Source: a phage
DNA: 39,720 nt
Strand: one strand, 5' to 3'
Sequence record: PZ618370.1
The position numbers and the translations under genes are program-made. The notes beneath the pieces were generated by a model. That model made no database searches and was not told the DNA's origin. It was given only the letters and a program-made list of their open reading frames with translations. The first letter of the stretch is position 1; each line of letters opens with the position of its first letter. Positions 1-39,720 of the stretch are shown here, one piece after another.

Positions 1-211
1 ATCGGATGACGACCAGTGAACCAATCAGTAGGTAGACCATAGGTTAGCCTGAATGGTGTTACCTAAAGTCCTTGACTACAGTAGCTAAGGTCAGTAGAGT
101 GAGTCTTTATCCACGTACTGACCTTAGCTACTGTAGTCAAGGACTTTAGGTAACACCATTCAGGCTAACCTATGGTCTACCTACTGATTGGTTCACTGGT
201 CGTCATCCGAT
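1..211. repeat. terminal foldback palindrome: arms 1-96 and 116-211 are exact reverse complements, 19-nt spacer 97-115
   Basis: Reverse complement of 1-96 written out by hand equals 116-211 base for base. Hairpin-end read-through or assembly artefact are both possible. Confidence 0.9.
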
Positions 212-242
212 GGTCTCAGACCTACGGTCCTTGACCTACAGT
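116..242 (+). repeat. left copy of direct terminal repeat (at least 127 bp)
   Basis: Identical to 39594-39720 at the window end; T7-like genomes carry direct terminal repeats. Confidence 0.8.
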
Positions 243-484
243 AGCTGAGACCTTAAGGTAGGGACGATGAGTTTTGGACCAAAAGTTTGAGACCACATCT
301 CACAGTTCAAGAACCTCAAGTCTCCCCATAGGCCTACTTCAGTCCAGACCAAAGGCCATACCCCAGTCTATCATAAGGTTGGACAGATGGTCAATACTTC
401 AGGTCAACGATAGGTCATGACGATAGGTGGTGGTGGAGACGATAGGTAGGGACTATGGGTCTGTCTCTGAGTCTCTATCTGTAT

Positions 485-3495: not shown

Positions 3496-3518
3496 ACTTA
3501 ACTATCACTATAGGACTC
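3496..3518 (+). promoter_or_regulatory. phage RNAP promoter (ACTTAACTATCACTATA-GGACT), upstream of the RNAP gene
   Basis: 15/17 match to the promoter family consensus; +1 G at 3513; initiating GGA rather than GGGA. Confidence 0.6.
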
Positions 3519-24278: not shown

Positions 24279-26636
24279 ATGCCGCTAATTACTCAATCAA
24301 TCAAGAACCTTAAAGGCGGCATTAGCCAGCAGCCTGACATACTGAGGTTCTCAGACCAAGGCGAGGCACAGATTAACTGCTGGTCATCCGAGAGTGATGG
24401 CCTCCAGAAGCGCCCACCTACAGTCTTCAAGCGCCGACTTAACATCGACGTGGGGAGCAACCCTAAGTTCCACCTTATTAACCGTGACGAGCAGGAGCAG
24501 TATTATATCGTATTCAATGGGTCCAACATTCAGGTAGTTGACTTGAGTGGTACTCAATACCCAGTGTCAGGTGCAGTAGACTACGTTAAGTCATCCAACC
24601 CACGGGATGAAATCCGTGTCGTTACCGTGGCAGACTATACGTTCGTAGTTAACCGTAAGGTTGTCGTCAAAGGTGGAAGCGAGAAGTCACACTCTGGCTA
24701 TAACCGCAAAGCACGAGCTTTAATTAACCTTCGCGGTGGACAGTACGGTAGAACCCTTAAGGTTGGAATCAACGGAGGAGTCAAGGTCTCGCATAAGCTA
24801 CCAGCAGGTAATGATGCCGAGAATGACCCACCTAAGGTTGACGCTCAGGCCATAGGTTCAGCTCTGAGAGACCTTCTTGTTGCTGCCTATCCAGACTTCA
24901 CGTTCGACCTTGGGTCTGGCTTCCTGTTAATCACGGCCCCTTCAGGGACTGACATTAACTCAGTAGAGACGGAGGATGGCTACGCTAACCAGCTAATCAG
25001 CCCAGTCCTAGACACAGTGCAGACAATCTCTAAGTTGCCTCTTGCTGCCCCTAATGGATATATCATTAAGATTCAGGGTGAGACCAACAGTAGCGCTGAT
25101 GAATATTACGTGATGTATGACTCCAACACTAAGACTTGGAAGGAGACAGTGGAGCCGGGAGTGGTCACTGGGTTCGATAATGCAACAATGCCACATGCTC
25201 TGGTGCGACAAGCTGATGGCTCCTTTGAGTTCAAGACGCTGGAATGGTCTAAGCGTGGTGCGGGTAATGACGACACAAACCCTATGCCTAGCTTCGTGGA
25301 TGCTGTGATTAACGATGTGTTCTTCTACAGGAACAGACTTGGGCTCTTGTCAGGAGAGAACGTAATCATGAGCCGTTCAGCCAGCTACTTTTCGTTCTTC
25401 CCTAAGAGTGTGGCGACATTGAGTGATGATGATCCTATTGACGTAGCTGTAAGTCACCCTAGAATCTCAATCCTTAAGTATGCCGTTCCGTTTAGCGAGC
25501 AGCTACTACTTTGGTCAGATGAGGTGCAGTTCGTGATGACAAGCTCAGGGGTCCTTACCTCGAAGTCTATCCAGCTTGATGTAGGCTCAGAGTTTGCCTT
25601 AGGTGATAATGCCAGACCGTTCGCTGTAGGACGCTCAGTCTTCTTCTCAGCGCCTCGTGGGTCATTCACCAGCATTAAGCGATACTTCGCTGTAGCAGAT
25701 GTGTCTGACGTGAAGGATTCTGATGATATCACGGGCCACGTGCTGTCCTATATCCCTAACGGGGTGTTTGACATTCACGGAACAGGGACTGAGAACTACA
25801 TCTGCGTCAACTCTACAGGTGCTTACAACCGAATCTACATCTACAAGTTCTTGTTTAAGGACGGCGTACAGCTTCAAGCCTCTTGGTCGCACTGGGAGTT
25901 CCCTAAAGCTGATAAGATTCTGGCGTCTGCGTCGATTGGCTCTACCATGTTCATTGTTCGTCAGCACCAAGGCGGCGTAGACCTTGAGCACCTTAAGTTC
26001 ATCAAGGAGGCAACTGACTTTCCATTAGAGCCATATAGACTCCACGTTGACTCCAAGGTGTCTATGGTAATCCCAATTGGCTCATATAACGCTGACACCT
26101 ATAAGACTACGGTCGACATCGGTTCTGCTTATGGTGGAAACGCCCCGTCTCCCGGTCGGTACTATCTGATTGACAGTCAGGGTGCCTATGTGGACCTTGG
26201 TGAATTGACCGACATCTCAACTGTGGTTATGCTCAATGGCGATTGGTCGGGACGTACAGTGTTCATCGGACGGTCTTATCTGATGTCCTACAAGTTCTCA
26301 CGGTTCCTGATTAAGATTGAAGACGAGAGCGGCACTCAGTCTGAGGACACTGGACGTCTACAACTTCGTAGGGCTTGGGTCAACTACAAGGACACTGGCG
26401 CTCTTAGACTCATTGTCAGAAATGGTGAGCGGGAGTTCGTGAACACCTTTAATGGGTACACCCTTGGTCAGCAAACCATCGGTACTACAAACATTGGTGA
26501 CGGGCAGTATCGCTTCGCCATGAATGGTAACGCATTAACCACGAGTCTAACCTTAGAGTCCGACTATCCTACCCCAGTGTCCATCGTTGGGTGTGGCTGG
26601 GAGGCGTCATACGCTAAGAAAGCTCGTTCCGTCTAA
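24279..26636 (+). CDS. 12: tail tubular protein B (gp12)
   Basis: 785 aa (T7 794 aa), SD AAGGAGGG, syntenic position. Confidence 0.9.
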   Translation: MPLITQSIKNLKGGISQQPDILRFSDQGEAQINCWSSESDGLQKRPPTVFKRRLNIDVGSNPKFHLINRDEQEQYYIVFNGSNIQVVDLSGTQYPVSGAVDYVKSSNPRDEIRVVTVADYTFVVNRKVVVKGGSEKSHSGYNRKARALINLRGGQYGRTLKVGINGGVKVSHKLPAGNDAENDPPKVDAQAIGSALRDLLVAAYPDFTFDLGSGFLLITAPSGTDINSVETEDGYANQLISPVLDTVQTISKLPLAAPNGYIIKIQGETNSSADEYYVMYDSNTKTWKETVEPGVVTGFDNATMPHALVRQADGSFEFKTLEWSKRGAGNDDTNPMPSFVDAVINDVFFYRNRLGLLSGENVIMSRSASYFSFFPKSVATLSDDDPIDVAVSHPRISILKYAVPFSEQLLLWSDEVQFVMTSSGVLTSKSIQLDVGSEFALGDNARPFAVGRSVFFSAPRGSFTSIKRYFAVADVSDVKDSDDITGHVLSYIPNGVFDIHGTGTENYICVNSTGAYNRIYIYKFLFKDGVQLQASWSHWEFPKADKILASASIGSTMFIVRQHQGGVDLEHLKFIKEATDFPLEPYRLHVDSKVSMVIPIGSYNADTYKTTVDIGSAYGGNAPSPGRYYLIDSQGAYVDLGELTDISTVVMLNGDWSGRTVFIGRSYLMSYKFSRFLIKIEDESGTQSEDTGRLQLRRAWVNYKDTGALRLIVRNGEREFVNTFNGYTLGQQTIGTTNIGDGQYRFAMNGNALTTSLTLESDYPTPVSIVGCGWEASYAKKARSV

Positions 26637-26643
26637 CTTATTG

Positions 26644-26693
26644 AAGGGCCTATAGATTTACCTTAACTATCACTATAGGGACTATAGGCCCTT
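26644..26693 (+). repeat. 12-bp perfect inverted repeat AAGGGCCTATAG / CTATAGGCCCTT bracketing the phi13 promoter
   Basis: Reverse complement checked by hand; arms 26644-26655 and 26682-26693; position matches T7 RNase III site R13. Confidence 0.7.
26661..26683 (+). promoter_or_regulatory. phage RNAP promoter (phi13-like)
   Basis: CCTTAACTATCACTATA-GGGAC; +1 G at 26678. Confidence 0.85.
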
Positions 26694-26712: not shown

Positions 26713-27183
26713 ATGTATATTCGCAAGGCTACGGAACCAGATGTCCAATACTTTCTGTGGCATCTTTCAGCAGATGATGTTAATGAGTGCAAAGCAAACT
26801 ATGGGTCAACAGTTGGTCTCTCTGAAAGACTGCTTAAGCACCTATCTCCGTCATCTGTGGTTTTAACGAACGGTGTAGGCGAACACTTCGCCTATGGTGG
26901 AAACCAAGGGGACAACGTATGGTTCTTGACTTCCGGTCTGGTCCACAAGCTGAGACCTAAAGAGAAGCGAGAGTTCATAAAGCGTATCTCTGAGTACAGG
27001 GACTTAATGTTAGACCAATACGGGACCATCTGGAACTACGTGTGGTCAGGCAATAAGTCTCACATTAAATTCTTGAAGTTACTTGGGGCTAAGTTCCATG
27101 ATGATTGGACTATCAGCCCGGTAACTGGTGAGCGTTTTCAATTATTCACTATCTCTAAGGGGGACGTATGTGTGAACCCGTAA
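26713..27183 (+). CDS. internal virion/assembly protein (gene 13 position)
   Basis: 156 aa ORF with SD AAGGAG after phi13; positional assignment, similarity to T7 gp13 not verified. Confidence 0.55.
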   Translation: MYIRKATEPDVQYFLWHLSADDVNECKANYGSTVGLSERLLKHLSPSSVVLTNGVGEHFAYGGNQGDNVWFLTSGLVHKLRPKEKREFIKRISEYRDLMLDQYGTIWNYVWSGNKSHIKFLKLLGAKFHDDWTISPVTGERFQLFTISKGDVCVNP

Positions 27184-36864: not shown

Positions 36865-37314
36865 ATGCTCGAATTTTTAAAGAGAGCGGCTCCGTGGTTA
36901 CTTGCAGCAGTGATGTTTGCTGGTGGCTACCACACCGCTAACAATAAGTGGGAGGCTAAGGTCAATGCAGAATACACCTCGAATCTTAAGGCATCGGAAG
37001 ATACAAGGCTTGCTGTCCAAGCTGAAGTCAACAAAGTGTCCAAACGGTTTCAGGACGAAATGTCCTCGTTGGAAGGCAGCACTGATAGGATTATTGCTGA
37101 CCTTCAGTCTGACAATAAGCGGGTGCGCGTCCGAGTCAAACCAACGAGCGGAACCACGCAAAGTGACGGTCGATGCATCATTGATGGTTACGCCGAACTT
37201 GACGAACGAGATGCTAAACGTCTTATCGCCATCGGAGTGAAAGGAGACAAGTGGATTAAGGCCCTTCAGGACACTGTGAGAGCCTTGCAGCAAGATAAGG
37301 AGGTGACGCATTGA
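36865..37314 (+). CDS. 18.5: i-spanin (Rz-like, gp18.5)
   Basis: 149 aa; N-terminal TM segment [12 protein letters not shown], followed by a charged helical region; embedded o-spanin gene in the +1 frame. Confidence 0.8.
36965..37240 (+). CDS. 18.7: o-spanin (Rz1-like lipoprotein, gp18.7) embedded in gene 18.5
   Basis: [25 protein letters not shown]: signal sequence with lipobox ISG-C; C-terminal SLMV.PNLT.EMLNV matches T7 gp18.7 as recalled. Track ORF starts at TTG 36917; ATG 36965 chosen. Start uncertain. Confidence 0.7.
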   Translation: MQNTPRILRHRKIQGLLSKLKSTKCPNGFRTKCPRWKAALIGLLLTFSLTISGCASESNQRAEPRKVTVDASLMVTPNLTNEMLNVLSPSE

Positions 37315-39074
37315 GTAACGATTTAGTGGCGCGTCAGGCGCTAATGACTGCCCGTATGAAGGCAGACTTCGTGTTCTTCCTGTTCGTCCTGTGGAAAGCT
37401 CTGTCACTCCCAGTCCCGACTCGCTGTCAGATTGACATGGCGAAGAAGCTATCGGCTGGGGACAGCAGGCGCTTCATCCTGCAGGCGTTCCGTGGTATCG
37501 GGAAGTCCTTCATTACATGTGCCTTCGTGGTCTGGAAGCTATGGAACAACCCAGACTTGAGGTTCATGATTGTGTCGGCCTCAAAGGAACGAGCCGATGC
37601 GAACTCCATCTTCATCAAGCGAATCATCGACCTCATGCCACAGCTTCAGGAACTCAAACCTAAGCAGGGACAGCGAGATGCGGTTATCAGCTTCGATGTT
37701 GGGCCAGCAAAGCCAGACCACTCACCTTCGGTTAAGTCCGTTGGTATCACTGGTCAGTTGACTGGTAGTCGTGCTGACATCCTTATTGCAGATGACGTTG
37801 AGGTTCCAAACAACTCAGCGACTCAGGCTGCGCGAGACCGACTGTCAGAGCTTGTGAAAGAGTTCGACGCTATTCTGAAGCCGGGAGGTACAATCATCTA
37901 TCTGGGTACTCCTCAGAACGAGATGACCCTGTATCGTGAGTTGGAAGGCCGCGGGTACACCACTACTATCTGGCCCGCTCGTTATCCACGCGACAGGAAG
38001 GACTGGCAGTCTTACGGCGACCGTCTGGCTCCTATGCTTCAGGCAGAGCTTGAAGAGGACCCTGAGTCCTTCTACTGGCGTCCAACAGATGAGGTACGAT
38101 TCGAGGATACGGACCTGAAGGAACGTGAGCTGTCATACGGTAAAGCTGGCTTCGCTCTACAGTTCATGCTTAACCCGAACCTGAGTGATGCTGAGAAGTA
38201 TCCTCTGAAGCTCCGTGACCTTATCGTAGCCGACTTGGACCCAGAGTCCAGCCCAATGGTCTACCAATGGTTGCCAAACACTCAGAACAAGCGTGAGGAC
38301 GTTCCTAACGTTGGACTCATGGGTGACTCATACCACACGTATCAGACTGTAGGTTCTGCCTTCAGCTCGTACACCCAGAAGATTCTGGTCATTGACCCTA
38401 GTGGTCGTGGTAAGGATGAAACTGGTTATGCGGTACTGTACCAGCTCAACGGCTACATCTTCGCTATGGAAGTTGGTGGTATGCGTGGTGGATATGAAGA
38501 CTCTACGCTGCAAGCCTTGGCTAAGATTGGTCGTAAGTGGAAGGTCAACGAATACGTCATTGAGGGTAACTTCGGTGATGGTATGTACCTTGAGCTGTTC
38601 AAGCCTGTAGCGGCCCGTATCCATCCAGCGGCTGTAACTGAAGTGAAGAGTAAGGGTCAGAAAGAACTACGCATCTGTGACGTTCTGGAGCCTATCATGG
38701 GGTCTCACCGTCTTATCGTCAACGCTGCTGCTATCGTCCAAGACTACCAGACAGCCTCTGATAAGGATGGTGTGCGTAACCCTATCTACTCTCTCTTCTA
38801 TCAGATGACCCGTATCTCTCGTGAACGTGGAGCCTTGGCACATGATGACCGACTTGATGCGCTGGCTATCGGTGTACAGTTCTTCGTTGAGTCTATGGCT
38901 AAGGATGCCAACAAAGGTGAACGTGAAGTCACTGAGGAGTGGCTGGAGGAACAGATGGAGAACCCACGGAAAGGCTTCGAGTCCATCCACACTGAGTTCT
39001 GGGACAATGGGGTCAGGGTAACTCACGATACGGACGACGAGCTTGGATTAGGGTCATACGTTACGTTCCACTAG
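37311..39074 (+). CDS. 19: terminase large subunit (gp19)
   Basis: 587 aa (T7 586 aa); [131 protein letters not shown] match T7 gp19 as recalled; TTG start after AAGGAGG. Confidence 0.96.
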
Positions 39075-39084
39075 CTGAATGAAT

Positions 39085-39131
39085 AACTATAGGAGAAAGC
39101 TGCATGAATACGCAGTTAGTACCCTATAGTT
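39085..39131 (+). repeat. 9-bp inverted repeat AACTATAGG / CCTATAGTT with 29-nt spacer between terminase and phiOR
   Basis: Arms 39085-39093 and 39123-39131 verified by hand; arms resemble the promoter core. Confidence 0.6.
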
Positions 39132-39168
39132 ACTACCAGTCTAACCTACTGTTTTACAAGGAGTTTGG

Positions 39169-39191
39169 ACTTAACTATCACTATAGGGAAG
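39169..39191 (+). promoter_or_regulatory. phage RNAP promoter near the right end (phiOR-like)
   Basis: ACTTAACTATCACTATA-GGGAA; +1 G at 39186. Confidence 0.85.
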
Positions 39192-39370
39192 ACCCCCGGT
39201 TACTTATAGTATTACTGTAGTGAATATACATATGCAGACTTTATGCAAGACCTTAGGAGGCAGACTCCGAGTTCTTACCTAAGGCTTGCACCGATGGAAG
39301 GAGGGTGATATTAATCATAATCCCTCCAATACAGATAGTAAAGACCATAGATACAGGAGGTATGTAGCAT

Positions 39371-39529
39371 ATGGCAAAGACCAAAGCTGTGCTTAAAGCT
39401 CTGGTGACCAACCGAGCTACATACAGGTTTCTTGCTGCTGTTCTACTTGCTGCTGGCGTTACTGCTGGAAGTAAGTGGGTCGGGTGGGTCGAGACTCTCG
39501 TATGCTCTCTGGTCTCTCAGTGTAATTAA
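39371..39529 (+). CDS. hypothetical small membrane protein (gene 19.5 position, 52 aa)
   Basis: ATG 10 nt after AGGAGG (39355-39360); hand-translated MAKTKAVLKALVTNRATYRFLAAVLLAAGVTAGSKWVGWVETLVCSLVSQCN; downstream of phiOR as T7 gene 19.5. Confidence 0.3.
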   Translation: MAKTKAVLKALVTNRATYRFLAAVLLAAGVTAGSKWVGWVETLVCSLVSQCN

Positions 39530-39563
39530 TGCAATCATGGTAACGATTCATGAGCGGAAGACC

Positions 39564-39604
39564 TAAGGTCAGTACGTGGATAAAGACTCACTCTACTGAC
39601 CTTA
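39564..39604 (+). repeat. palindromic hairpin element at the inner boundary of the right terminal repeat (11-bp arms TAAGGTCAGTA / TACTGACCTTA, 19-nt spacer)
   Basis: Same arms as 86-126, but the spacer is the reverse complement of the left-end spacer. Confidence 0.8.
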
Positions 39605-39720
39605 GCTACTGTAGTCAAGGACTTTAGGTAACACCATTCAGGCTAACCTATGGTCTACCTACTGATTGGTTCACTGGTCGTCATCCGATGGTCTCAGACC
39701 TACGGTCCTTGACCTACAGT
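39594..39720 (+). repeat. right copy of direct terminal repeat
   Basis: Identical to 116-242; runs to the last base of the window. Confidence 0.8.

Follow-up and report, generated by a model that had tools for sequence, protein, structure and literature searches.

Does the phage genome deposited as PZ618370.1 carry near its right end a DNA hairpin that serves in concatemer maturation, and does that hairpin abut the terminal repeat? The window analysed here is the whole record, 39,720 nucleotides of one strand, from a Kayfunavirus (K1F-like) phage of the T7 group (Studiervirinae), whose right end is 95–97% identical to many records. An initial annotation had described an 11-bp stem with a 19-nt loop at 39564–39604, lying exactly at the inner edge of the right terminal repeat, and had proposed it as the equivalent of the nick-and-hairpin signal that T7 is thought to use in duplicating its repeat. 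We re-examined the element itself, the ends of the record, the position of the terminal repeat and the corresponding regions of related phages.

The hairpin and its surroundings

By inspecting the right end of the window we find TAAGGTCAGTA-(19 nt)-TACTGACCTTA at 39564–39604, just as had been described. An additional outermost C-G pair lengthens the stem to 12 bp (39563–39574 paired with 39594–39605). The hairpin is located in a 246-nt non-coding interval, and the features that lead up to it and make it up are as follows.

37311..39074, + strand: large terminase subunit (gene 19) ORF, so annotated in relatives that are 95–97% identical over the region
39162..39193, + strand: phage RNA-polymerase promoter TTAACTATCACTATAGGGAAGAC, the phiOR equivalent, a match to the phage promoter consensus
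39371..39529, + strand: gene 19.5-like ORF of 52 aa, with its stop 33 nt before the hairpin; gene 19.5 is annotated likewise in T7, T3, K11 and BA14
39563..39574, + strand: hairpin left arm CTAAGGTCAGTA, a perfect 12-bp complement to 39594–39605
39575..39593, + strand: hairpin loop CGTGGATAAAGACTCACTC, 19 nt, with a small apical GTG/CAC stem in predicted folds
39594..39605, + strand: hairpin right arm TACTGACCTTAG, followed by a conserved AGTCAA box common to T7, T3 and K11

The promoter consensus CTAAACTATCACTATAGG has nine matches in the window (at 3507, 7034, 8765, 18304, 21125, 22124, 26672, 33948 and 39180). An exact-protein look-up with the gene 19.5-like product returned one metagenome contig, in which the junction is normal.

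The 39.6-kb genome has two inverted repeats with perfect arms of 12 bp or more and a loop of 3–30 nt, compared to 0.08 per genome expected by chance in first-order Markov simulations. The sole other one, AAGGGCCTATAG / CTATAGGCCCTT at 26644–26693, is also a perfect 12-bp repeat and flanks the phage promoter TTAACTATCACTATAGGGAC between the ORFs at 24279–26636 and 26713–27183. When folded as single-stranded DNA, the hairpin region of the + strand is predicted to reach −11.3 kcal/mol (z −3.6) and that of the − strand −12.8 kcal/mol (z −5.3).

Two transcriptional readings of the element were tried and discarded. Neither strand has a terminator-like site at the hairpin. GCTACTGTAG follows the right arm, with no U-tract, and an intrinsic (rho-independent) terminator was rejected since the T/U run is absent. 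A leftward σ70-like promoter, TTGACT-17-TAGAGT, can be drawn over the right arm and loop; such matches are not above chance (2 found, 1.3 expected).

The ends of the record are assembly overlaps

The window's final 127 nt (39594–39720) are identical to positions 116–242, and the right arm of the hairpin opens this duplicated stretch. Taken literally, the recurrence would put the start of the physical terminal repeat at 39594, the first base of the right arm, with the hairpin abutting it. Against this, the duplicate starts at position 116 and not at the left end of the record, and its length is that of the assembly k-mer (k = 127). At the left end itself, window 1–127 is the exact reverse complement of 39563–39689. 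The direct and the inverted end overlaps are thus each exactly 127 nt long. We also examined the 127-mers starting at positions 1–116: two of them, at 1 and 116, have a further copy in the record, and each of the 114 between occurs once. Positions 1–96 pair with 116–211 around a 19-nt loop, forming a 96-nt perfect palindrome at the left end that is absent from the initial annotation, and the loop of this palindrome is the reverse complement of the right-end hairpin loop. Alignments of the left end to relatives all begin at position 116. These observations define three further features.

39594..39720, + strand: k-mer overlap, the 127-nt duplicate of 116–242; no longer suffix of the record recurs at the left end
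1..115, + strand: fold-back (snap-back) extension, the reverse complement of 39575–39689, consisting of the flipped loop and inverted right-of-hairpin sequence
85..127, + strand: second hairpin copy with the loop flipped, the reverse complement of 39563–39605

Because both end overlaps are exactly 127 nt and the 114 intervening 127-mers are unique, the window is evidently a short-read de Bruijn contig built at k = 127, composed of a fold-back edge (1–242) and a genome cycle ending at the vertex 116–242. The overlap begins at the right arm because the fold-back and the genome differ in loop orientation only, so that the first shared 127-mer follows the loop. The apparent coincidence of the right arm and the repeat start is produced by assembly. 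A 12-bp repeat is far below any assembler k, and we therefore infer that the 114 unique k-mers come from real reads carrying the inverted junction.

A methods paper reports that, when T7-like phages are assembled from short reads, the contig is opened at an arbitrary point and the repeat ends up in its interior (PMC10438801). The window shares with the contig-end overlaps of other de Bruijn short-read phage assemblies an exact overlap, here of 127 nt, and a collapsed terminal repeat. Unlike an ordinary de Bruijn opening, which falls at an arbitrary point, that of the window is set by an edge at the hairpin along which the path switches strand (fold-back). The record of Salmonella phage ST3, to which we return below, uses the same vertex.

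The true terminal repeat lies to the right of the hairpin

We next located the terminal repeat by comparison with relatives in which it is defined. K1F has a 178-bp repeat at each end of its record, EPr2 an annotated repeat of 179 bp, and Morganella phage MopsHU1, whose hairpin is identical to that of the window, a repeat annotated as PhageTerm-predicted. All three repeats begin TCTCACAGTT / TCTCACAGTTCAAGAACC, and TCTCACAGTTCAAGAACC is found a single time in the window, at 298. The termini of these phages, at the TCTCACAGTT motif, lie 137–170 nt rightward of the arm boundary that had been claimed as the repeat start, and the T7 and T3 repeats open with nearly the same motif. Over window 298–476, identity is 87% with the K1F repeat and 94% with that of EPr2. 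Since the start motif occurs once, at 298, and the stretch that follows is homologous to these repeats, the true terminal repeat is, by homology, window 298–476, collapsed to one copy and starting 170 nt rightward of the stem.

128..297, + strand: spacer from the hairpin to the true repeat, 170 nt, non-coding and conserved, homologous to the pre-repeat right ends of K1F, EPr2 and MopsHU1
298..476, + strand: true direct terminal repeat in a single (collapsed) copy, assigned by homology to the K1F, EPr2 and MopsHU1 repeats
477..483, + strand: ATCTGTA, directly after the true repeat; K1F is identical there

The placement of the hairpin at the inner edge of the right terminal repeat is accordingly wrong. 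The right arm does open a 127-nt end duplicate, but that duplicate is a k-mer overlap and the repeats of the relatives map to 298–476; we give next to no credence to a physical repeat beginning at 39594. The record is mis-terminated, with 115 nt of palindromic artefact, an end overlap of 127 nt and the true repeat collapsed, and its ends are not usable as physical termini.

With the repeat so placed, the order of a phiOR-like promoter, gene 19.5, inverted repeat, spacer, repeat and ATCTGT matches that of T7. The ATCTGTA at 477–483 is placed like the ATCTGTT of T7, which we take to be the concatemer-junction pause signal.

Three further observations concern this region. The spacer holds an imperfect inverted repeat, 123–151 / 220–249 (equivalent to 39601–39629 / 39698 onward), with arms of ~29 nt that are ~90% complementary and 68 nt apart; it overlaps the last bases of the right arm, and K1F has one too. 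Just right of the true repeat, at 499–573, is a 15-nt tandem repeat, AACCATAGGTCCTAC, in three exact copies and a diverged fourth. Finally, positions 1–680 of the EPr2 record (OM256482.1) read repeat, right-end segment with the hairpin, and repeat again, giving three annotated copies, and this record looks mis-built at its left end.

The stem is conserved and the loop is replaced within Kayfunavirus

The initial annotation had suggested comparing the junction with related phages for conservation of the stem but not of the spacer between its arms. We selected IMG/VR loci by the downstream flank of the hairpin alone (n = 23) and compared them together with K1F, EPr2 and three relatives at a greater distance. 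Because the stem pattern reads identically on both strands, all sequences were set in one orientation for the conservation alignment. The stem is intact in all of these sequences, its outer 11 bp being identical, while the loops belong to three unrelated cassettes, with which the whole hairpin measures 41, 43 or 45 nt. Across the Kayfunavirus junctions examined the expected pattern of a kept stem and a replaced loop is thus what is seen. We considered whether one loop type might be the flipped form of another and rejected this, the three cassettes being unrelated in either orientation. A flipped loop was found in none of the 25 aligned Kayfunavirus junctions, which are all in one orientation with loops ending ACTC.

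The flank upstream of the stem is a mosaic: several unrelated sequences occur there, in free combination with the loop types. The block of conserved sequence starts ~5 nt before the stem and continues rightward to the terminal repeat, and the gene on the left is interchangeable. The stem is invariant within Kayfunavirus, and there is consequently no covariation inside the genus.

The differing loop lengths bear on the possibility that the two arms are not a hairpin at all but a duplex site and part of the packaging signal, with a dimeric protein such as the small terminase subunit bound to both arms. The conserved block running from the stem through to the terminal repeat is compatible with such a site, as is the requirement of T7 phagemids for a pac site besides the terminal repeat (PMC13236587). 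Among the loop types, though, the spacing of the arms shifts by 2 and 4 bp, which would change the rotational setting of one half-site against the other. Such changes of spacing are harmless to a hairpin, and this argues against a rigid duplex-binding site.

Other genera carry inverted repeats in the same slot

We then inspected the corresponding interval in other T7-like genera. T7 has an imperfect inverted repeat with 19-nt arms at 39568–39608, beginning ~30 nt after gene 19.5. The distance from the centre of the inverted repeat to the terminal repeat is 190 bp in T7, 184 in T3, 210 in YeO3-12, ~145 in K11, 168.5 in BA14, 192 in the window and 184 in K1F. The elements therefore occupy a slot after gene 19.5, 145–210 bp left of the terminal repeat, at a distance that is not fixed across genera. 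The repeats of T3, phiYeO3-12 and K11 are homologous to that of T7, and that of BA14 is unrelated. An AGTCAA box follows every junction inverted repeat compared. Two sets of weaker or additional repeats were also noted nearby: T7 and T3 have a second, different inverted repeat ~110–116 bp before the terminal repeat, and the window and K1F have weak further inverted repeats ~124 bp before it.

The junction repeats are nearly invariant within genera. Between T7 and T3, a pair table of equal length shows four double, pair-preserving (compensatory) changes, with the mismatch positions retained. RNAalifold run on the T7, T3 and K11 haplotypes scored one covarying pair, the apical part having been misaligned by MAFFT. 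All junction repeats fold as DNA, with z between −2.5 and −5.5.

The window element resembles that of T7 in its slot (centre at 192 and 190 bp, respectively), its AGTCAA box and its hairpin stability. It differs in its arms, which are perfect over 12 bp around a 19-nt loop, whereas those of T7 are imperfect over 19 bp around a 3-nt loop. The two sets of arms share no sequence; the AGTCAA box and the overall order are common to both. Since the arm sequences are unrelated, any homology between the two elements has to be argued from where they lie and what flanks them. The window hairpin is best read as the equivalent, in the K1F group, of the inverted repeat at the T7 junction.

The comparison across genera also bears on the duplex site. 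There, the arms have been replaced wholesale with their complementarity kept, which together with the four compensatory changes between T7 and T3 is a signature of pairing, and we regard binding of a dimeric protein to the unfolded arms as quite unlikely.

A DNA hairpin or an RNA element

Pairing could instead serve in a transcript. The hairpin would then act in rightward transcripts from the phiOR-like or late promoters, as a 3′ stabiliser or an RNase III-type site of the gene 19/19.5 message. Its position is in keeping with this: it lies 33 nt past the gene 19.5-like stop and downstream of the promoter at ~39180, and the inverted repeats of T7, T3, K11 and BA14 likewise begin 17–30 nt past gene 19.5. 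The gh-1 record, moreover, annotates a stem-loop in the corresponding interval as a putative RNase III site. Like the RNase III hairpins of the T7 group, the window element is an intergenic stem-loop after a gene. Those hairpins usually have a two-tier stem with an internal loop, whereas the window stem is short and perfect, 12 bp in all. The mapped RNase III sites of T7 are not known to include the position of its junction repeat.

Several other results speak against an RNA element. Neither a U-tract terminator nor an Rfam relative was found, Rfam 15 giving no covariance-model match at E ≤ 1 over 38900–39720 on both strands. The conserved block extends from the stem into the packaging region, and the gene on the left is interchangeable. 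In addition, the bottom strand folds better in five of the five genera tested, a weak point given that three of them, T7, T3 and K11, are related. At unpaired positions in these three, an A.C on the transcript-sense strand corresponds to a G.T wobble on the other strand. This strand asymmetry weakly favours a hairpin formed by the non-transcript strand, as DNA. On balance an RNA element seems unlikely to us.

Proposed role in concatemer maturation

The proposal that the hairpin is a T7-type maturation signal holds in part: a conserved hairpin does occupy the concatemer-junction slot, as in T7, T3, K11 and BA14, but it is not at the edge of the repeat. We put at about even the chance that it acts as DNA in concatemer maturation, as the turn-around for a hairpin-capped intermediate in the duplication of the repeat. 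Hairpin DNA containing the terminal repeat is described, in a secondary source, as occurring during T7 infection (PMC4281155). We suggest the following scheme for the window. A nick and/or strand displacement would create a strand end next to the terminal repeat, and that strand would fold onto its own arm and then be extended or ligated. In this way a hairpin-capped duplex would form that takes in the spacer, the terminal repeat and the next genome's left end, with the other copy of the repeat retained by the right end of the preceding genome. Finally, terminase would cut where the repeat begins on its left side, at window 298, and a hairpin stub of ~210 bp would be discarded. The nick, the priming, the terminase cut and an in-cell origin of the fold-back are what we infer.

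In T7, Chung, Nardone and Hinkle reportedly described in 1990 a 'hairpin end' intermediate with the tip of the hairpin ~190 bp left of the repeat, and we take the T7 repeat at 39568–39608 to be this turn-around. The hairpin model of repeat duplication is said to lean largely on that one study.

A palindromic fold-back junction with a loop that can be read both ways is shared with the concatemer junctions and flip-flop telomeres of poxviruses and with the rolling-hairpin replication of parvoviruses. There, both loop orientations are inherited, whereas Kayfunavirus genomes have one (25 of 25 aligned junctions), with no flipped junction in 212 records. A flip-flop hairpin telomere of the poxvirus or parvovirus type was rejected on these grounds. 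The single orientation fits a discarded hairpin stub better than a telomere.

Origin of the fold-back junction

The left end of the window reads inverted spacer, stem, loop, stem, spacer, repeat and left end. This is the sequence expected of the T7 intermediate of Chung, Nardone and Hinkle, that is, of a hairpin-capped 'spacer + repeat + left end'. We searched for further examples of such a junction, either in its Kayfunavirus form or as a synthetic T7-type equivalent, and found none in 212 Kayfunavirus and 184 T7-type records, in IMG/VR or in metagenome contigs.

One record from an independent study has a related break. That of Salmonella phage ST3 (OQ860986.1) starts exactly at the right arm (1–127) and has a 127-nt end overlap, using the same vertex as the window. 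A branch at the boundary of loop and arm, caused by a fold-back or a flipped loop, has therefore recurred in another library. In other ST-numbered Salmonella phage records the junction is internal and at scattered positions, and these records were thus opened elsewhere. Salmonella phage CHRF_10022 (PQ336901.1) has a 55-nt end overlap whose first base lies 7 nt into the hairpin loop. A fold-back would not account for this overlap, and its position may be coincidental.

Possibly, though we hold this only tentatively, the fold-back of the window and the break in ST3 capture the hairpin-capped left-end intermediate as formed in vivo, or a site-specific nick that produces it. The strand that folded could not be deduced from the orientation of the loop, an approach that was rejected since a hairpin strand and its complement yield both orientations. 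Alternatively, library preparation could have produced the fold-back, at what is the genome's most stable hairpin; chimeras of this kind at inverted repeats or stable hairpins are a known artefact of the procedure.

The artefact can be combined with a repeat that has no dedicated function and is simply carried in a conserved non-coding block, the fold-back of the window and the break in ST3 then both arising in library preparation or assembly. That the stem is invariant, without covariation in the genus, would agree with this, as would a fold-back unique among ~400 related records. Chance, however, hardly provides such a repeat within a 246-nt non-coding interval, given the frequency expected per genome. 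Both arms have also stayed intact through wholesale replacement of the loop, and other genera have different but complementary arms in the same place. We therefore consider it very unlikely that the hairpin lacks a function of its own, and return to a DNA hairpin at the concatemer junction as the preferred reading.

Implications for T7-like phages

A hairpin-forming repeat is kept at one position of the junction in several genera, with different sequences and with compensatory changes. The K1F-like version is unusually clean, its 12 perfect pairs and interchangeable loops making a well-defined target for mutagenesis. If the fold-back does derive from the intermediate, it would to our knowledge be the first support from sequencing for the hairpin model of 1990, and would come from outside the genus of T7. 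Public read sets of T7-like phages would in that case already suffice to place the turn-around and the nick at single-base resolution, and, should raw reads show fold-backs to be directional and frequent, the hairpin model would become testable by re-analysing existing libraries.
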